Below, in pieces: positions 2,302-42,385 of a DNA stretch of 64,000 nucleotides. How positions within the stretch are numbered: position 1 is the first letter of the stretch; every line of letters starts with the position of its first letter. Under the pieces are notes generated by a model, which saw only the letters and a program-made list of their open reading frames with translations, did no database searches and was not told the DNA's origin. Origin of the DNA: Escherichia coli (GTDB taxonomy: Bacteria; Pseudomonadota; Gammaproteobacteria; Enterobacterales; Enterobacteriaceae). A program made the translations under genes and the position numbers. The DNA lies in NCBI RefSeq assembly GCF_045037415.1, contig NZ_CP173438.1; one strand, given 5' to 3'.

Positions 2302-2942
2302 TTTTCGGAATACCTCTCCCGTTTACTCAGTTGTTCAGGCAGATGGTGAAGCAGCTCACCGTTGCCGCAGTAAATGGCGGCATGGTTCGGTACCGAAGCA
2401 CCAAAGCAGCACAGCAGAATATCGCCCGCCTGTGCAGAGGACAGGGGCACCCGGTAAAAGCCGGTGACCGCCATATTGTCCAGGTAAAGGTTCTGACCGT
2501 TGCGCCACCAGTCATCCTCGCGATGAAAATCCGGCATTTCAGTCCCCGCCAGATGATAAGCATCCCGGAACAGCGTGTAACAGTCCGTCACCCCGTGCTC
2601 AAAGCGCCGTCCTGTCAGATGTGGCACACAGCGGAATTTGTGAATGTCACCCCGGCAGACCAGCCACCAGGGCAGTGCGCTTTTTATCTGCAGCCGCCGG
2701 TCAGCCTCGCTCAGCCAGGGCAGCCCACCGGGATGACTGTGGACCAGTGCCACAATCTCCCCCTGCATCTCTGCCCGCAGCCAGTCTTCCGGTGCGATAC
2801 GAAAATACGCCTCCGGCTCTGCAGAAATATTCACACAAGGGATATACCACTCCCCCTCCGACGTGCTTATCACGAAGCCGCACGACTCCGCAGGCGCACA
2901 CCGCCGGGCATGCGCCAGAATCGCTGATTCAGTCTGTGTCAT
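2199..2942 (-). CDS. K: Tail assembly protein K (JAMM/MPN plus NlpC/P60 motifs); start taken at internal MTQTESAIL
   Basis: HSHPGG JAMM motif and DCYTLFRDAYH NlpC/P60-like motif; ORF track 5' extension overlaps L so the internal Met was chosen. Confidence 0.8.
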   Translation of the reverse strand: MTQTESAILAHARRCAPAESCGFVISTSEGEWYIPCVNISAEPEAYFRIAPEDWLRAEMQGEIVALVHSHPGGLPWLSEADRRLQIKSALPWWLVCRGDIHKFRCVPHLTGRRFEHGVTDCYTLFRDAYHLAGTEMPDFHREDDWWRNGQNLYLDNMAVTGFYRVPLSSAQAGDILLCCFGASVPNHAAIYCGNGELLHHLPEQLSKRERYSEKWQRRTHSVWRHRHWHASAFTGIYNDLAAASACM

Positions 2943-2952
2943 AAACCGGGAT

Positions 2953-3651
2953 TTACTGCGAAAGTTTATTAATGGAAAGGAAACCGCCAAAATTGCCGAC
3001 ATTCCTGCGCAGTTCACACCCGCGCATGCACTTGCTGCATCTGTCCTTACGGATATCCGTGGTGGGGTTGTCGAACTCATCCGCCACCGCAGGACCGTTA
3101 TACCCGCATTCATCTCCCCGGTAATCCCACATACAGGTGTTCGCCAGCATGATGCGACCGGGAAACAGCGCCCCATCCGTCTCGGTCGGTGTAGCCAGCA
3201 CAAACGAGGCCGTCATGGCTGTCAGCTGCGACATCTGCTCCACCACCCAGCGGTCACTCAGCTCCTGCTCCGGGTCCGCCTCCGGATTGCCCGCAACGAA
3301 ATTCACCGCATCCAGAAAACGGGCATACACCCGGCGGCGGACCACCGTGGCCCCCACCAGACTCTGCAGGTCTTCCGCCATCCCGGTGACCAGACCGAAC
3401 AGATTGGACACCGTCAGCGACGGTCTGGCACTGCTGCCCTTCCCGCTCATCTCAAAACCGCTGCCGTCAATCGGGTATGCCTGATATTGCCGCCCCTGCC
3501 AGGTGACCGGCTCCCCTTTTTCATTCAGCTCATTACAGAAAAAATACCGCTCACCGCCCTGTACCGTCAGGTCGATTTCCCAGAGTACCACCCGCGGTGA
3601 CTGCTCTGACTTAACCGACTCGTTCAGACTTTCTTCGCGAATATCCTGCAT
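2953..3651 (-). CDS. L: Minor tail protein L
   Basis: 232 aa, lambda L-like, positioned between M and K. Confidence 0.85.
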   Translation of the reverse strand: MQDIREESLNESVKSEQSPRVVLWEIDLTVQGGERYFFCNELNEKGEPVTWQGRQYQAYPIDGSGFEMSGKGSSARPSLTVSNLFGLVTGMAEDLQSLVGATVVRRRVYARFLDAVNFVAGNPEADPEQELSDRWVVEQMSQLTAMTASFVLATPTETDGALFPGRIMLANTCMWDYRGDECGYNGPAVADEFDNPTTDIRKDRCSKCMRGCELRRNVGNFGGFLSINKLSQ

Positions 3652-3992
3652 CAGTTCACCACCTGCTCAATCGTACAACTGAAATCACTGTGCCTGGCGT
3701 TATCTGTGACGCTCCACTCCCGGCACACCACCCTCACCGTCAGGTTATGTTTCGGCGGTCGCCACAAAAAGGCACGGTAACCACCATGCCACGATAAAAA
3801 TTCATCCAGCCAGCGCCGGGTTGGTTCATCCGTCACCCGGAACACCGCCTGAAACGTCTTCAGTCTGGCATTAAGTCCCGTCGGTCGGCGCTGTTCATAA
3901 CCGTCACCAAACCGAACCCTCACCACCGACGGTTTCTCACTCACCTGCATCCCTTCACGCGGGACCAGATGCAGCGTTTTTATCTCAGCCAC
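3651..3992 (-). CDS. M: Minor tail protein M
   Basis: 113 aa; VRFGDGYEQRRPTGLNARLKT and C-terminal EQVVN resemble lambda M. Confidence 0.85.
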   Translation of the reverse strand: MAEIKTLHLVPREGMQVSEKPSVVRVRFGDGYEQRRPTGLNARLKTFQAVFRVTDEPTRRWLDEFLSWHGGYRAFLWRPPKHNLTVRVVCREWSVTDNARHSDFSCTIEQVVN

Positions 3993-6900
3993 TCAGCATT
4001 CCTCCGTCACGTCGCATGGACAGCATCACCGCCTGCACCCGCTGGTCAATCAGCTGCACAAGACTGCCTGCCGCCTCCGCCCCTATCTGTCCGTTAGCCC
4101 CGTCATTCTGAATGGCGATGTGGTAGACCGGGGAATACACCAGACCGGCACTGCCGTTCATACTGCCCACCGCGCGTACGCCCAGCGAGCCATCCGCCGC
4201 CCGGGTCAGGGGCATAATGGCTTCAGGTCCGGCTTCCCCCATCAGCCCGGCCCCTTTTGCAAACGCAAAGTACGTGGGCGTGTCCACAATGCTGTTGCTG
4301 TACGCACTCAGGTTTGCCGAGGTATACACGCCGCCTTTTGCATTGGCCACCGCACCGCCCAGCCAGTCACCAATGCTGCCAATAAATCCTCCCGCACCGG
4401 ACATACCGTTTGCCGCCGTCTTAATTCCGTTGACAATCGCAGCATTCATAAGAACTTTTGAGATTTCCTGCAGTACGGATGAGGCCCAGTTGCGCCATTC
4501 CACTTTGTTTCCGTTCAGCATCTCCGTGATGTTATTCACCATCCCTGAGATACCCTCCGTCGCAAGCTGTGCTGCCTGTGAGGCGTAATCGGATGCATTG
4601 TCCACCCAGTTACTGAGCCCCTCCTGCAAGCCTTTCTGCCAGTCCGCACGCTGCGCATCCGATTCGGCATAAAAGGCTGCCTGGTCCTTAAGGCGTTCGC
4701 TCAGATACTGCGCGTTCTGTGCCCGTGCCTGTCTGTAAAAATCCTCACTGATATCCCCGGTCTGATACTGAGACTGAAGGTCCGCATCCTTCTGGCGGAA
4801 GCTGTCACGGATCTGCTGCAACTCCCGCATGCGTTCCCTGGCTCGTTCTCCCTGCCCGTATCCCAGCAGTTCGGCTTCATTTGATGCACGCGCAGCCACA
4901 TTATCATTCTTCAGGGTCTCTTCCCGGGATCGCAACTGTTCCCGGATTTTTTGCTGGTCAATCAGGGCCGCGTTACGCAGCAGTTCCTGCTTCTGCATCT
5001 CCGTCAGGGTTTTCAGTTCGCCCTGCGCAGTCTGGTACTTCAGCTTCGCCAGCTCTGTATTCTGACCCGCCAGTGCCAGTTGCTCTTTCTGCTGCTTCAG
5101 TAGCCGGGAAAAACTGTCTTCCGCTTTTTCCGTCTCTGATTTTCCACCCCGGGATTTAGGTTTGTTCGCCTCGTTATTACGCCAGGCTTCCAGAGCATTA
5201 CTGATATAACGCTGTCTCGCCTCCTGATACGAATCCCCCACAAAACCAAGGTCATCCGCCGCATACCCCAGCCGGGCACGCTCTTTTTCCTCCCCCTTCA
5301 GTCGGGACAGGGCCAGCTCACGTTCTGTTTTTGTCAGGGCGCTCTGCTGTTTATCATCCAGGGTGGCCTGCGGCAGCCGTAACGGTACATTCACCAGTCC
5401 CTGACGCTGCTGAAGCAGTTCATTCCCCAGCCCCAGCAGACGGTTGAATTCCGTATGCTGACCGTTCATAACCAGCATGGACTGGTACACCTTATTCTGC
5501 TCTGCCGCCTGCTGACGAATTAACGCCACACGACGGTCTTCCAGCCCGGCAAGCACATCCTGAATGGACTGCGCTTTTTCCTGCATCTGTGCCAGACGGG
5601 ACTGCTCAACGGCAAGCTGCTCTGTTGCCTGAGAAAGCCCTTCCGTCACGGTCTTCACCGATGTCAGATGGTTTATCATGAATCCGTCACCGGTTGTCCA
5701 GCCAGGGTTAGCCAGAACATACTGATATCCAGCGATTTTTTCCTGCAGGGATTTCACCCGGCTGGCCTGTTCATCAATCAGCCGGTTCTGCTCTGCCAGC
5801 GCCGCCCGTGTTCGTCCTTCATTATCTGAGGCTTCAGGCAAAGACATTGACGGCGTTTTATGCGCGATTTCATCTATCGTCAGTGCATACTGGCGCGCTG
5901 ACTCCCTGGCCTGCTCCTGATTCTGGTACAGCGTATACCATGCTGCTGCCCCCAGCATCACCAGTCCGGGTACGCCACCAACCAGTCCCAACGCACCAGT
6001 CATCAGACGTGAGCCCACCGCCGTTGTACTGTTCAGCTCATTCTGGGCTGCGGTTCTGGCAGCAATATTTCTGTTCAGGCGTTCCTGTGTGGCCGCCAGA
6101 CGGGCTTCTGCAGCAATCTGCATCTCCGTCCCGCGGGCTGCCGCCACAGCCTGCTGTGCACGGTACACGGCTGCCCTTGCCCGCGCCGTGGCAATCTGCG
6201 TCCCCCTGAGCTGTGCTTCCGCCAGTGCCACTTCATTACGTGCTGCCGTCACAAGTCCTGCCGTGGCAGACACCGCTCCGGAGGCCATATTGCCAAAGTA
6301 CCGGGCAACCCCGACGGCAACCAGCGCCCCCGCGGCTGTTGCCACATTATCAATATTACCGGCAACACCGTTCAGCACGCCGGAGAGCGTTTTCGTCGCT
6401 CCGCTGGCTTCATTCGCGCCACCCACCCAGGCCATAAAGGCGTTTTCCACCTTTGTGATCCCGTCAGAGACCGTTTCCGGCATGGCGGCATATTCATCAC
6501 GCAATACCCCCAGCTGGCTGATTAACGCAGGAACGACTTTATCCGCCGTCAGTTTGCCGTCGTCCGCCATCGCCTTAAGGTCTTTACGGGCCACGCCCAT
6601 ACCCGCAGCCAGTGCACGTACGATCCGGTCTCCGCTTTCATTGACCGAATTAAATTCCTCACCGCGTAACACACCCTGTGCCAGCGCCTGGCTGAACTGG
6701 GTGATCACCGAGCCCGCCTCTGCCGTACTGGCACCGGAGATTTTCAGCCCCGTGGAAATGGCCTCCGTCACCTTCAGCACATCATCAGCACTGTAACCAT
6801 ATTCACGCATTGAGGCTGCCGAGCGGGCAAACAGGGCCGCATTATCTGAAAATGCCGTGCCCGTCCGCTGGCTGATATCCATCAGCACTTTCTGTGATGA

Positions 6901-36709: not shown

Positions 36710-39181
36710 ATGAGTAAAGTCTTTATTTGCGCCGCCATTCCGGACGAACAGGCAATAAAGGAAGAAGGTGCCGTCGCTGTAGCCACTGCCATTGAAGCCG
36801 GTGATGAACGTCGCGCCCGCGCAAAATTTCACTGGCAATTCCTGGAACATTATCCGGCTGCTCAGGACTGCGCTTATAAATTTCTTGTCTGCGAGGATAA
36901 ACCCGGTATACCCCGCCCTGCCCTCGATTCCTGGGATGCTGAATATATGCAGGAAAACCGCTGGGATGAGGAGTCTGCTTCCTTTGTCCCGGTTGAGACT
37001 GAATCCGATCCGATGAACGTCACTTTTGACAAGCTGGCCCCTGAAGTACAGAACGCTGTCATGGTTAAGTTCGACACATGTGAAAACATCACCGTTGATA
37101 TGGTTATTAGCGCACAGGAATTGTTGCAGGAAGACATGGCAACATTCGACGGACATATCGTTGAAGCGTTGATGAAAATGCCAGAAGTTAACGCCATGTA
37201 TCCGGAGCTTAAGCTGCATGCCATCGGGTGGGTTAAGCATAAATGTAAGCCTGGTGCCAAATGGCCCGAAATTCAGGCAGAGATGCGCATCTGGAAAAAA
37301 CGTCGTGAAGGTGAACGCAAGGAAACCGGAAAATACACGTCTGTTGTTGATCTCGCCCGCGCCAGAGCCAATCAACAGTACACTGAAAATTCAACAGGAA
37401 AAATCAGCCCGGTCATTGCTGCCATTCATCGCGAATACAAGCAGACATGGAAAACACTGGATGACGAACTGGCCTACGCTCTCTGGCCTGGTGATGTGGA
37501 TGCCGGAAACATTGACGGCAGCATCCATCGCTGGGCAAAAAATGAAGTTATCGACAACGACCGCGAAGACTGGAAGCGTATCTCGGCATCAATGCGCAAA
37601 CAGCCTGATGCCCTTCGCTACGACCGCCAGACTATTTTTGGCCTTGTCCGTGAACGTCCGATCGACATTCACAAAGACCCTGTGGCACTGAACAAATACA
37701 TTACTGAATACCTGACTACAAAGGGCGTGTTTGAAGATGAAGGAAGAAATCAGAGCGCAACTGATACTCTCTCGTCGCCAGTACCAGAAACTGATGCAGT
37801 GGAAACGGCAATTCCGGACAACGAAAAAACCGAATGCAAAGTGGAAGTCGAACCATCTGTAGAGCGTGAGGGGCCGTTCTACTTCCTCTTCACCGACAAG
37901 GATGGCGAAAAATACGGTCGCGCAAACAAACTTTCTGGTCTGGATAAGGCGCTGGCTGCCGGGGCAACTGAAATCACGAAAGAAGAATATTTTGCCCGCA
38001 AAAACGGCACATACACAGGTTCACAACAAAATACTGATGCATCTGACACGACCGCACAACCAGACCTGGTAAAAGTTACCGCTGACGAAGTAAACAAAAT
38101 TATGCAGGCAGCCAGTATCAGCCAGCCTGACGCTAATAAGTTGCTCGCTGCATCACGTGGTGAATTTGTTGAAGGGATTAGCGACCCGAATGATCCGAAA
38201 TGGGTGAAGGGGATTGAAACCCGCGATTCTGTGCACCAGAACCAGTCAGAAACGGAACAGTACGACCAAAAAGCGGAACAAAACAGCCAAAATGCGTTAC
38301 AAAACGAGCCAGAAACGAAACAACCTGAACCAGTCGTGCAACAGGAAGAGGAAAAAGTTTGTACCGCATGCAATCAGACTGGTGGTGGTAACTGCCCTGA
38401 TTGTGGCGCAGTGATGGGTGACGCAACCTACCAGGAGACATTCAACGAAGAAAGCCAGGATGAAGCCCGGGAAAAAGATCCAGAGGAAATAGAAAATGCC
38501 GGACTCCCGAACAAGGAGTGCACCGAAGGCGATCAACATGCCAATGACAATAATGAAATAGGCGAGACAGCAAATCCCTTAATTAAGGTGAACAGTCATC
38601 GTAAAAGCACATCCACCAGCAGGTTGTGGCACCATCTGATGATTGACCTTGAAACCATGGGAAAAAATCCTGATGCCCCGATTATCTCAATAGATGCAAT
38701 ATTTTTCGATCCGCAAACCGGAGATATGGGGCCGGAATTTAGTAAGACTATCGATCTGGAAACTGCTGGCGGAGTCATTGATCGTGACGTCATTAAAAGG
38801 TGGCTGAAGCAATCACGTGAAGCGCAGTCTGCCATTATGACCGATGAAATCCCGTTAGATGATGCACTGTTACAATTGCGGGAATTTATCGACGAAAACT
38901 CCGGTGAATTTTTTGTTCAGGTCTGGGGAAATGGAGCCAACTTCGAAAACACGATTTTGCGCCGTTCATACGAACGGCAGGGGATCCCCTGCCCATGGCG
39001 TTACTACAACGATCGCGATGTACGCACAATCGTTGAGCTGGGGAAAGCCATAGACTTCGATGCCAGAACGGCTATTCCATTCGAAGGTGAGCGCCATAAT
39101 GCACTTGATGACGCCCGTTACCAGGCAAAATACGTTTCAGTTATCTGGCAAAAACTGATCCCGAATCAGGCTGATTTTTAA
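36710..39181 (+). CDS. Large early protein: EaA-like N-terminal region, acidic linker with CxxC...CxxC zinc ribbon, C-terminal DEDDh 3'-5' exonuclease domain
   Basis: 823 aa; C-terminus has MIDLETMG (motif I), VWGNGANFE (motif II) and HNALDDARY (motif III). Confidence 0.7.
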   Translation: MSKVFICAAIPDEQAIKEEGAVAVATAIEAGDERRARAKFHWQFLEHYPAAQDCAYKFLVCEDKPGIPRPALDSWDAEYMQENRWDEESASFVPVETESDPMNVTFDKLAPEVQNAVMVKFDTCENITVDMVISAQELLQEDMATFDGHIVEALMKMPEVNAMYPELKLHAIGWVKHKCKPGAKWPEIQAEMRIWKKRREGERKETGKYTSVVDLARARANQQYTENSTGKISPVIAAIHREYKQTWKTLDDELAYALWPGDVDAGNIDGSIHRWAKNEVIDNDREDWKRISASMRKQPDALRYDRQTIFGLVRERPIDIHKDPVALNKYITEYLTTKGVFEDEGRNQSATDTLSSPVPETDAVETAIPDNEKTECKVEVEPSVEREGPFYFLFTDKDGEKYGRANKLSGLDKALAAGATEITKEEYFARKNGTYTGSQQNTDASDTTAQPDLVKVTADEVNKIMQAASISQPDANKLLAASRGEFVEGISDPNDPKWVKGIETRDSVHQNQSETEQYDQKAEQNSQNALQNEPETKQPEPVVQQEEEKVCTACNQTGGGNCPDCGAVMGDATYQETFNEESQDEAREKDPEEIENAGLPNKECTEGDQHANDNNEIGETANPLIKVNSHRKSTSTSRLWHHLMIDLETMGKNPDAPIISIDAIFFDPQTGDMGPEFSKTIDLETAGGVIDRDVIKRWLKQSREAQSAIMTDEIPLDDALLQLREFIDENSGEFFVQVWGNGANFENTILRRSYERQGIPCPWRYYNDRDVRTIVELGKAIDFDARTAIPFEGERHNALDDARYQAKYVSVIWQKLIPNQADF

Positions 39182-39245
39182 TGTTCAACCCCGGTCGTTG
39201 CCCACCAGCTATAGTGGCGGCGACCATGATTAGCGAACGACGCTC

Positions 39246-39494
39246 ATGGCAAGACTTATTCTGCTCACTGAGTGGGCAAAAGAGGAATTCAGTGAACCGG
39301 TCCCAACTCCGAGTACGTTAAGTAAATACGCTAAAGCCGGAATGATATTTCCTCTCCCCAAAAAAGTTGGAAGACGCTGGCGAGTGGATCCGCAAGCTCG
39401 CTTTGTCGGAATGGTAAACAAGCCGGAGGTGATCGCCACAGATCACCCTGCTTTGAAGAGGATACTGGAAGATGGCGCGCCCGCGAAAATATAA
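39246..39494 (+). CDS. xis: Excisionase (lambda Xis-like)
   Basis: 82 aa; LLTEWAKEE...IFPLPKKVGRRWRV resembles lambda Xis; overlaps the int start. Confidence 0.75.
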   Translation: MARLILLTEWAKEEFSEPVPTPSTLSKYAKAGMIFPLPKKVGRRWRVDPQARFVGMVNKPEVIATDHPALKRILEDGAPAKI

Positions 39495-40602
39495 AACCAA
39501 TGTTCCGGGATTATCTCCGTATTTTGACAAAAGAAATAACAAAGTTTACTGGCGTTACAGGCATCCCATAACAGGCAAAAATCACGGTCTCGGCAGTATT
39601 GACCAGAAACTGGCAGAAACTATTGCAGCAGAAGCGAACAGCCGTCTTGCCCGGCAGCAAATGGAACAAATGCTCAGTCTGCAGGAGAAAATTATTAGTG
39701 ATACCGGCGGTTCATCAACCGTTACCATTTTTCTGAATAATTACAGAAAAATTCAACAGGAAAGATATGAAAACGGCGAGATCAAACTCAACACGCTGAA
39801 ACAGAAAGCGGCCCCTCTCAGGGTATTTGATGAACGTTTTGGCACCAGACCGTTAGATGCCATAACCGTAAAAGATGTGGTATCAGTACTGGAAGAGTAC
39901 AAGGCCAGAGGACATAACAGAATGGGACAAATTTTCAGGAAGGTACTGATCGATGTTTTCCGGGAAGCTCAGCAAACGGGCGATGTCCCGCCAGGCTTTA
40001 ACCCTGCAGAATCGGCAAAAAAACCGCAGGTGCGGATATCAAGACAGCGACTGACTTTTGATGAGTGGATGATGATTTATAACGCAGCGGAAAAGGATGG
40101 TTACTTTTTACAGCGCGGTATGCTGCTGGCACTGATGACAGGCCAGCGCCTTTCAGATATTTGCAAAATGCAATTTTCGGATATCCGGGATGGTTATCTT
40201 CATGTCGAACAGCAAAAAACAGGAACCCGGATTGCCATCCCTCTGGCTCTGCGTTGCGATAAATTAAATCTCACCCTAGATGATGTGGTGTCATCCTGCC
40301 GCGATTGCGTTCTTAGTCCGTGGCTATTGCACCACCATCACGCGAAAGGGACAGCTAAGCGCGGCGGGATGGTTAAGCCAGCAACATTAACCGTTGCATT
40401 TAAAAAAGCCCGGGATTCTGTGGATTACAACTGGCGTGCTAATGGCACCCCACCCTCTTTCCATGAGCAGAGATCTTTATCAGAGCGATTGTTCAGAGAG
40501 CAGGGGGTTGATACCAAAATTTTGCTGGGCCATTCGAATCAAAAAATGACCGATATTTACAACGACGCACGCGGTAAGGAATGGAAAAAACTGGTCATTT
40601 GA
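39472..40602 (+). CDS. int: Tyrosine integrase (lambda Int family)
   Basis: 376 aa; closely parallels lambda Int (DGYLHVEQQKTGTRIAIP, HEQRSLSERL, LLGHSNQKMTDIYNDARGKEW). Confidence 0.9.
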   Translation: MARPRKYKTNVPGLSPYFDKRNNKVYWRYRHPITGKNHGLGSIDQKLAETIAAEANSRLARQQMEQMLSLQEKIISDTGGSSTVTIFLNNYRKIQQERYENGEIKLNTLKQKAAPLRVFDERFGTRPLDAITVKDVVSVLEEYKARGHNRMGQIFRKVLIDVFREAQQTGDVPPGFNPAESAKKPQVRISRQRLTFDEWMMIYNAAEKDGYFLQRGMLLALMTGQRLSDICKMQFSDIRDGYLHVEQQKTGTRIAIPLALRCDKLNLTLDDVVSSCRDCVLSPWLLHHHHAKGTAKRGGMVKPATLTVAFKKARDSVDYNWRANGTPPSFHEQRSLSERLFREQGVDTKILLGHSNQKMTDIYNDARGKEWKKLVI

Positions 40603-40613
40603 TGACCAGTTTT
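40591..40613. terminator. Bidirectional intrinsic terminator spanning the int stop codon (shared with ompW)
   Basis: CTGGTCAT-ttg-ATGACCAG flanked by A6 upstream and TTTT downstream. Confidence 0.55.
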
Positions 40614-40644
40614 GCAGAGGGGTTTTGCAGAGGTTTTGCAGAGA
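40610..40644. repeat. Three tandem copies of an 11-mer TTTTGCAGAGG between int and ompW (candidate attR region)
   Basis: TTTTGCAGAGG-gg-TTTTGCAGAGG-TTTTGCAGAGA. Confidence 0.8.
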
Positions 40645-40647
40645 AAA

Positions 40648-41286
40648 TTAAAAACGATATCCTGCGGAGAACATAAACACCCACGGATCCAGTCGTACCG
40701 AGTCTTTTACGGTAGTAACACCAGATTTGTACTTAGCCGTGGTATCGATATCCATGTACCAGACTGACATATTCAGCAACCAGTCACGGTTGATGAGATA
40801 ATCCAGGCCTACTTGCCCCGCCACGCCCCATGAATCCTTCAGACTAAGGTCAGATAAACCAAGACCTTCACCGGTGTCATTGAAGTCATTATTAAAAAAG
40901 GTGGTGTAGTTAATACCCGCACCAATGTAAGGACGGAATTTACTGCCAGAATCGCCAAAATACCATTGTGCCATCAGTGTTGGCGGTAAATGATGGACTG
41001 TCGCAATATCCCCGGTTGTGGCTGTGCCAACTTTATGACGAAACGGCGATGCCGCCAGTAATTCCACACCAATGTTGTCGGTCGCCATATAAGTAAACGT
41101 CAGGCCCAGTTGAGTGTTATTGGTCACGCTGAATCCACCCAAACTTCCTAACGTACCACCAGCACCTTCTGTTGGACGTACGGTTGCAGAACCAGCACGC
41201 ATAAAAAATTCGCCTGCTTCATGCGCAAAGGCACTGCCAGAGAGAAGAGTTGTTACTGCCAAAGCCGCCACTGTTAACTTTTTCAT
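40648..41286 (-). CDS. ompW: Outer membrane protein W
   Basis: 212 aa from MKKLTVAALAVTTLLSGSAFA; C-terminal DPWVFMFSAGYRF. Confidence 0.9.
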   Translation of the reverse strand: MKKLTVAALAVTTLLSGSAFAHEAGEFFMRAGSATVRPTEGAGGTLGSLGGFSVTNNTQLGLTFTYMATDNIGVELLAASPFRHKVGTATTGDIATVHHLPPTLMAQWYFGDSGSKFRPYIGAGINYTTFFNNDFNDTGEGLGLSDLSLKDSWGVAGQVGLDYLINRDWLLNMSVWYMDIDTTAKYKSGVTTVKDSVRLDPWVFMFSAGYRF

Positions 41287-41641
41287 ATCCGCTCCGTCGT
41301 TATGGTTATAAAAACGTGACGAATATACCCACATTGGGGTAACAAATGATCCTACACAGATCACATTACATATGGTAATTCACCCTTTATTGATCTAGAT
41401 TAATTTAGAAGTTGCATTGAAAATCCTGGTTAATGTGATTTAAATCAATTTTTATATATTTCGCTACGCAAATATTAACTCGCTCGCCACTTGCAGCGGT
41501 TTACCCACGCCTGAAGGCCAGCAATTACCTCCGCTTTACAAAGATATGCTTTTCCATACAAGACCTGATGCTGCCACCCGGGGCTTAACCAGGGTACAAT
41601 TGCCCGCTAATTAACACCTGCATAAAACTCAAGGAGAGTGC

Positions 41642-42385
41642 ATGTCTATCACGGCGCAGTCCGTATACCGTGACACCGGAAATTTCTTCCGTAATCAATT
41701 TATGACCATTCTGTTGGTATCGTTGCTATGTGCGTTTATCACAGTGGTGTTAGGGCATGTTTTCTCACCCAGTGATGCACAGCTTGCGCAGCTCAATGAC
41801 GGCGTACCCGTTAGCGGCAGTAGTGGGTTGTTCGACCTGGTTCAGAATATGTCACCGGAACAGCAACAAATTTTGCTGCAGGCTTCAGCGGCGTCCACTT
41901 TTTCAGGATTAATCGGTAACGCCATTCTCGCCGGGGGCGTAATATTAATTATCCAGCTGGTGTCTGCGGGTCAGAGAGTCAGTGCGCTGCGAGCTATTGG
42001 TGCCAGTGCGCCGATATTGCCAAAGTTATTTATTCTGATTTTTCTGACTACCCTTTTAGTACAGATTGGCATCATGCTGGTGGTCGTTCCGGGAATTATC
42101 ATGGCCATTTTACTGGCTCTGGCACCGGTGATGCTGGTACAGGACAAAATGGGCGTTTTTGCCTCGATGCGTAGCAGTATGCGGCTGACATGGGCGAATA
42201 TGCGTCTGGTGGCACCCGCAGTACTGAGCTGGTTGCTGGCAAAAACACTGTTGCTGCTTTTTGCCTCTTCTTTTGCCGCATTAACCCCGGAAATTGGTGC
42301 CGTACTGGCGAACACCTTGAGCAACCTGATTTCAGCCGTATTGCTCATCTATCTGTTCCGCCTGTATATGTTGATTCGCCAATAA
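41642..42385 (+). CDS. yciC: Inner membrane protein YciC
   Basis: 247 aa multi-TM protein in conserved position. Confidence 0.85.

Follow-up and report, generated by a model that had tools for sequence, protein, structure and literature searches.

The DNA that we analysed, called the window throughout, is a stretch of 64,000 nucleotides of Escherichia coli in which the integrase end of a prophage meets the host gene ompW. Here the excisionase and integrase genes run towards a convergent ompW, and a hairpin and three direct repeats lie around the point where the two reading frames end. The features to which we refer, with positions counted from the first nucleotide of the window, are the following.

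39246-39494, plus strand: xis, the excisionase gene, which overlaps the start of int; annotated as an excisionase in JJ1887 and as xisE in PPompW records.
39472-40602, plus strand: int, encoding a 376-aa heterobivalent tyrosine integrase, assigned from its Pfam domains, with a TGA stop at 40600-40602.
40587-40613, no strand assigned: hairpin AAAACTGGTCAT-ttg-ATGACCAGTTTT, a candidate terminator whose 8-bp core stem (40591-40609) encloses the int stop.
40610-40619, plus strand: repeat 1, TTTTGCAGAG (exact 10-mer), a predicted arm-type Int site, outermost on the P' arm (P'3-like).
40623-40632, plus strand: repeat 2, TTTTGCAGAG (exact 10-mer), a predicted arm-type Int site (P'2-like).
40634-40643, plus strand: repeat 3, TTTTGCAGAG (exact 10-mer), the predicted arm-type Int site nearest the core (P'1-like).
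40648-40740, minus strand: phage-borne 3' end of ompW (last 30 codons plus the stop), part of the P' arm; unlike the displaced native 3' end and within the 121-bp duplication of PPompW.
40741-40770, minus strand: att core, or crossover region; the two prophage ends are identical over 40741-40764, with one mismatch up to 40770.
40771-41286, minus strand: host-derived 5' part of ompW, from the ORF list, the JJ1887 annotation and alignment.

The N-terminus of Int matches the Pfam family Arm-DNA-bind_1 (PF09003), the arm-binding domain of lambda, over residues 2-71 (E 2.6e-21), and its catalytic part matches Phage_integrase (PF00589) over residues 193-367 (E 2.4e-16). At the protein level, Int is 99.7% identical to the integrase of PPompW, about 50% identical to that of phage 21 and 37% identical to that of lambda. 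An excisionase gene directly adjoins int (ORF 39246-39494), as it should in a lambda-type att system.

Many ST131-type E. coli chromosomes match the window at 100% identity. JJ1887 is likewise 100% identical here and is colinear with the window over 42.5 kb apart from an ISEcp1-blaCTX-M-15 insertion, which sits within the tape-measure gene of the JJ1887 copy (locus L001, 37533-40305) and is absent from the window (at about 5200); in JJ1887 the same prophage also has ISEc12 within lom (locus L002, 1130-3432). At the DNA level, the PPompW prophages of STEC O145:H28 match the xis-int-att region with 99.4% identity. Nakamura et al. 2021 (PMC8112680) assign a prophage to the PPompW group when its integrase shares more than 90% identity with that of PPompW and when ompW is split by the insertion, and the element described here has both the near-identical Int and an ompW remnant at its far end; on these grounds we assign it to the published PPompW type, a lambdoid, phage-21-like prophage. 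Elsewhere in the window, two adjacent 30-bp direct repeats (80% identical, 33019-33078) with an iteron-like look lie in a 325-aa ORF of the replication region (32481-33458, minus strand), and a 162-bp unit occurs three times in tandem (87-94% identity, 10673-11278) inside an 861-aa ORF, a portal protein according to the JJ1887 annotation.

Where does this prophage end and the chromosome begin? A direct-repeat search inside the 64-kb window did not find the matching far junction, and we took the far prophage end from JJ1887, in which the prophage runs roughly 13 kb past the window start. There, the far end is a 141-nt pseudogene labelled 'OmpW family, missing N-terminus' that directly adjoins trpA. 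When the two ends are compared, all that they have in common is GTCTGGTACATGGATATCGATACC (ompW sense, 40741-40764), or 30 bp with one mismatch up to 40770; outside 40741-40770, the sequences of the two ends are unrelated on both sides. The 24-bp block that is identical at both junctions carries an inverted repeat, TGGTA-N12-TACCA. This comparison shows the crossover to lie within ompW coding sequence, in a core of 24-30 bp (40741-40770) about 100-130 bp to the right of 40591-40647. Integration is therefore inside the gene, with the phage supplying the last 31 codons (30 plus the stop) and the 3' flank, and the comparison likewise shows 40603-40740, that is, the right half of the hairpin, the three repeats and these 31 codons, to be phage DNA.

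The first-pass annotation had taken 40591-40647 for the prophage-chromosome junction and expected the attachment core in it. Since the ends share only 40741-40764 (or to 40770), this segment is neither junction nor core and instead forms the outer end of the P' arm of attP. In the JJ1887 comparison, 40591-40647 has no counterpart in the direct repeat at the far end of the prophage, the outcome that the first-pass annotation had named as its refutation; that repeat matches 40741-40764, or 40646-40766 in STEC. A core within or right beside 40591-40647, overlapped by the repeats, with integration into the intergenic DNA on the 3' side of ompW, would suit the usual closeness of int to att as well as the published STEC duplication, which begins at 40646, directly after repeat 3. 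We nevertheless consider this extremely improbable: in this lineage nothing in 40591-40740 is common to both prophage ends, their identity being limited to 40741-40770. Moreover, the empty site rebuilt with the 40741-40770 core (from the ompW 5' part in the window, the remnant and the trpA flank) exists as a contiguous, 100% identical sequence in real genomes, where it is annotated ompW|trpA, and the unoccupied ompW-trpA site is found in 620 genomes at a coverage of at least 80% of the rebuilt site. IMG/VR contigs also contain attP as one unbroken sequence (int, P' arm, core, P arm; seen in loci L007, L025 and L062), and they pass from core into P arm at the same point.

The earlier expectation of integration at the 3' end of ompW is thus right in that a lambdoid prophage sits at ompW with int beside the junction, but the comparison of the ends moves the crossover inside the coding sequence. 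Similarly, yciE does follow ompW in K-12, as the first-pass annotation had it, but the unoccupied site in this lineage is ompW-trpA; yciE-yciF-yciG is absent and trpA comes directly after ompW (L002, 11864-11915). The naming of the junctions also has to be reversed: in lambda nomenclature the int-proximal junction with the P' arm is attL and not attR (PMC4880445), whereas the far junction had been called attL.

The element itself has been described in STEC, and Nakamura et al. 2021 (PMC8112680; GenBank LC567818-LC567841) define a 121-bp att duplication for PPompW and report that attP of excised PPompW circles was confirmed via PCR sequencing. The annotated 121-bp repeat corresponds to 40646-40766 of the window with 120/121 identity. 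The two results agree once the host allele is considered: the shared block is only 24-30 bp in this lineage because the native and phage ompW 3' ends differ here, and the duplication reaches 121 bp in STEC strains because they are alike there. The ST131 comparison therefore narrows the published duplication to a 24-30-bp crossover block. In Escherichia albertii NBRC 107761 (L091, about 2630-3100), this same int occurs together with its repeats, the phage-borne ompW tail and the core, here fused in frame to an ORF that is not ompW; this arrangement may be a secondary integration site or a rearrangement.

The phage-borne tail (40648-40740) reads ...DTTAKYKSGVTTVKDSVRL... in the last loop, compared with ...DTEVKYKSNGAVLPAGRYSDNVRL... 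in the displaced native tail, which is 9 aa longer (L002, 11724-11864), and it also differs from K-12. The swapped segment is one that we take to be the last surface loop of the 8-stranded OmpW barrel. Because the phage tail differs from the native tail that it displaces, lysogeny changes the C-terminal region of OmpW. Among PPompW variants there are at least five different ompW tails, and int and the arm sites are conserved. One could go further and propose that the phage tail is more than a repair of the target gene, bringing its own allele of the last loop and a new 3' UTR for ompW, which would span the Int arm sites and reach as far as the hairpin on the int stop. We judge this improbable; if it were true, lysogeny could alter OmpW as a receptor for phages or colicins, and strong, oxygen-regulated transcription of ompW through the arm sites could couple excision or int expression to host physiology.

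We now turn to the repeats. Exact copies of TTTTGCAGAG occur in the 64-kb window, on either strand, only at these three positions, and Tandem Repeats Finder (TRF) reports the array with period 11, 2.9 copies and a score of 54. The array had been described as three tandem 11-mers, 'TTTTGCAGAGG x3'; the three exact 10-mers bear this out in part, but they are spaced first by 13 bp and next by 11 bp, and A, not G, comes after the third copy. In E. coli variants, TTTTGCAG is invariant in every copy, whereas position 10 and the spacers vary. Two E. coli genomes have two repeats instead of three, L098 (O55:H7 DEC5A) and L099 (tcmA_3). In DEC5A an extra A in the A-run before the hairpin also shifts the int frame, and the lost repeat together with this frameshift suggests a decaying prophage.

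For relatives, we scanned IMG/VR with Int, which gave 80 loci, most of them ending at the int stop and nearly all 95-100% identical, with about ten that include downstream DNA; a scan of genome contigs with Int gave three loci, two of them useful (L092 and L093). All relatives with readable downstream DNA have three close direct repeats starting TTTTG just 3' of int, with a spacing of 11-13 bp, and each Int lineage has its own motif. In phage 21 the motif is TTTTGGGGAA, present three times in the interval bounded by the int stop and by the terminator behind the icd 3' copy; GenBank, from which we take the label, annotates this array as 'attP ... 3 subsites P1P2P3'. Klebsiella phage Kp4865-4 has TTTTGATAA three times, and 813R8, located at potC, has TTTTGGAGA, TTTTGG(G/A)GA, three times. 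L093, an Enterobacteriaceae genome with a 65%-identical Int, has TTTTGCAG(A/G)(A/G) (TTTTGCAGRR) three times with the same 13/11 spacing and a CCAG lead-in. In L092 (Kluyvera georgiana, Int 68% identical), CCAGTTTTGCAGAAGG at 4110-4125 is the start of the arm-site cluster, and about 1.5 kb of cargo (2629-4125, with ORFs of 306 and 96 aa on the opposite strand) separates it from the int stop, a layout that resembles e14, in which genes part int from att.

A further copy, in the same orientation, is found on the other arm in PPompW, phage 21 and Kp4865-4, at a distance of 115-120 bp from the core or host-homology block, measured from its edge. The fourth copies of phage 21 and Kp4865-4 are exact, and that of PPompW, GTTTTGCAGAA, matches at 10/11 positions. 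Counted from the core centre, PPompW attP has its P-arm copy at -143 to -133 and its three P' copies at +109 to +143. The repeated motif is thus present on both arms of attP and is unrelated to the core sequence, which is the pattern of arm-type sites. In three P-arm versions that otherwise show many differences, GTTTTGCAG stands at an unchanged distance (+140), and directly beyond it their similarity is lost; this end of conservation is where the outer boundary of a functional attP would be expected. On the P arm we find one recognisable copy and no acceptable second, P2-like site; CCGCAAAA at -253 and, in phage 21, TTTTGGCTAA were considered and rejected as weak matches in inverted orientation. 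On the P' arm, which is made up of ompW coding sequence, no match to the IHF consensus WATCAANNNNTTR is found in the interval from the core to the arm sites; the sole hit, with one mismatch, is on the P arm at -114 to -102. Still farther out on the P-arm side, about 280 bp from the core (L002, about 11427-11450), an int-sense GC hairpin is followed by T8 (GCCGCGTTTGCGGTTTTTTTT); this is a position like that of lambda tI/sib, beyond att in the circular phage and parted from int in the prophage.

Because Int has an arm-binding domain, relatives have triple repeats at this position, a fourth copy lies on the P arm and TTTTGCAG is invariant, we read the three TTTTGCAGAG copies as P' arm-type sites, equivalents of P'1-P'3, to which the N-terminal domain of Int very probably binds. 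Counting against this reading are the single recognisable copy on the P arm, P' sites that are farther from the core than those of lambda, the missing IHF match between core and P' sites, and the two genomes with two repeats, although one of these also has the frameshifted int. The first-pass annotation had left the choice between Int and IHF sites, and of these two Int arm-type sites are favoured by the arm domain and the relatives, while the motif is unlike the IHF consensus. The repeats could alternatively be bound by an accessory protein (Xis, IHF, Fis or a phage regulator), given that the Xis sites of lambda are likewise closely spaced direct repeats (PMC4880445). Those sites, however, are on the P arm only, whereas the cluster here lies beside the int stop, where lambda has P'1-P'3, and the other arm bears one more copy at its outer edge. 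Moreover, the motif follows the integrase: four Int lineages (PPompW/L093, phage 21, Kp4865-4 and 813R8) each have their own, and an Int of 65% identity keeps that of PPompW. Together with the mismatch to IHF, this makes binding by an accessory protein in place of the Int arm-binding domain quite improbable. Even less credible is an origin of the repeats by slippage within a spacer, as duplications that have no function; the units are short, A/T-rich and tandem and their number varies (two in L098 and L099), but the 8-mer core stays invariant across variants while the spacers change, the same 3+1 layout recurs with different motifs in three or more phages, and the P-arm copy keeps a fixed distance in otherwise divergent P arms. 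With the copies read as arm-type Int sites, TTTTGCAG provides a testable arm-site motif, and attP limits of about -143 to +143 are available for engineering or curing this prophage.

The remaining feature is the hairpin on the int stop codon. Its stem is formed by CTGGTCAT (40591-40598) and ATGACCAG (40602-40609) around a ttg loop (40599-40601), and the A6 before it (40585-40590) and the T4 after it (40610-40613) can extend the stem to 12 bp. The TGA at 40600-40602 falls in loop and stem, confirming the earlier observation that int stops inside a hairpin with T/A runs on both sides. The ompW stop (40648-40650, minus strand) is convergent with int, and this hairpin is the only stem-loop between the two stop codons. 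Folding of the stretches that contain it gives -21.3 kcal/mol for 76 nt in the int sense (z = -4.4) and -17.0 kcal/mol for 86 nt in the ompW sense (z = -5.2), with 0 of 200 shuffles as good. For the hairpin with its A/U extension, the values are -14.9 kcal/mol (int sense) and -14.4 kcal/mol (ompW sense), and the 8-bp stem by itself, which contains 4 GC pairs, reaches -9.4; the tail is T6 in the ompW sense, the better of the two, and T4 in the int sense. A scan with a terminator consensus did not flag the hairpin on either strand, likely because the maximal stem uses up the four tail T's. An Rfam search of 39000-42000 (E <= 1) found no RNA family, and nothing supports a counterpart here of the e14 / NC-SV sRNAs (co293, svsR; PMC12803456).

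The native ompW terminator (-18.7 kcal/mol) is stronger than this hairpin and has been displaced to the far prophage end, some 54 kb away. We lean towards the hairpin as the terminator of the rebuilt ompW, possibly a bidirectional one, replacing the displaced native element; it may also end or stabilise int transcripts. In phage 21, Kp4865-4 and L093, the host-gene fragment is separated from int by a hairpin that resembles a terminator, and that of phage 21 alone is annotated as one; on this basis the supply of a terminator by the phage would be a habit of the family, and PPompW has no hairpin in this interval other than the stem on the int stop. Variation within E. coli is informative but ambiguous: stem pair 6 changes from C-G to T-A in 45 of 1729 E. 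coli records and either single intermediate is seen in none, and in one variant the loop TGA becomes TAA, keeping the stop. The compensatory change may be a single evolutionary event, and it would be expected of a protein-binding palindrome no less than of an RNA stem; that the left stem arm is coding sequence, and hence constrained, also weighs against a terminator.

It is possible, though we think it the less likely case, that the hairpin is not a bidirectional terminator, acting only in int-sense RNA (as 3'-end protection or an int terminator) or serving as a palindrome for a dimeric protein, with ompW transcripts ending elsewhere or reading into int antisense. The short int-sense tail (T4), the weak stem missed by the scan and the compensatory change, which preserves a DNA palindrome equally, are all consistent with this, and in L093 (65% Int) the stem folds only in the int sense, at -8.7 versus -0.4, through G-U pairs. 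Against it, there is no other hairpin between the ompW stop and int, it is the ompW-sense strand that has the better tail (T6), and the relatives have terminator-like hairpins between the host-gene fragment and int. The original proposal that the hairpin terminates both int and ompW therefore survives as that of the only terminator candidate between them, tempered by the weak stem, the negative scan and a tail of only T4 in the int sense. Taking the pieces together, we consider it probable that 40591-40647 belongs to a P'-arm stretch that carries arm sites and a phage-supplied terminator, with the crossover further right in ompW.

The consequences extend to a large number of genomes. Among the 5426 complete E. 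coli genomes, 1728 have the int end and the repeats, and in nearly all of these ompW is the neighbour, so that carriers make up about a third of complete genomes, including ST131 and the O157, O145, O111 and O121 STEC. In these genomes, phage DNA makes up the last 31 ompW codons, the 3' flank of the gene and its likely terminator, and the main value of this result is for the accuracy of annotation. As a mechanism, this is the ordinary textbook biology of lambda and phage 21 and would not surprise a specialist. What we add, from comparison of sequences, is the narrowed crossover block, a definition of the arm motif and of the attP limits, a 3+1 layout of predicted arm sites that the phage-21-like Int subfamily shares and, with moderate confidence, the placement of a candidate terminator on the int stop codon.

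It is useful to set these features against systems that are better known. Bidirectional intrinsic terminators likewise consist of a single stem-loop with an A tract and a T tract between convergent stop codons; the stem of the candidate here differs in that it overlaps coding sequence and a stop codon and is weak (4 GC pairs). With lambda, the element shares a heterobivalent Int with an N-terminal arm-binding domain, xis upstream of int and, as also in HK022, P'1-P'3 sites that abut or overlap the int stop. The P' sites of lambda lie at about +50 to +80 from the core, and those here (+109 to +143) are farther out. The arm motif of lambda is unrelated to the one described here, its P arm has two sites where we recognise one, and its attB is intergenic with no gene fragment carried, in contrast to the ompW fragment here; the role of the five lambda arm sites is described in PMC4880445. 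PPompW of STEC O145:H28 and other E. coli, also inserted in ompW, is the same element, and differs in having the 121-bp duplicated segment in STEC where a divergent, B2-type native 3' end leaves 24-30 bp in this lineage; arm-type sites and the hairpin are not mentioned in the parts of PMC8112680 that we searched. Phage 21 (attP at icd; GenBank OL657228), with its Int at half identity, carries the 3' end of its target gene and supplies a terminator as the ompW prophage appears to do. Its terminator lies between the gene fragment and the repeats and not, like the candidate here, on the int stop codon, and its motif and target are TTTTGGGGAA and icd in place of TTTTGCAGAG and ompW. In both phages, three TTTTG-type repeats stand behind a CCAG lead-in, in phage 21 with a spacing of 12-13 bp and a position just ahead of the int stop, and a fourth copy is found on the opposite side of the host-homology block, about 120 bp past it.
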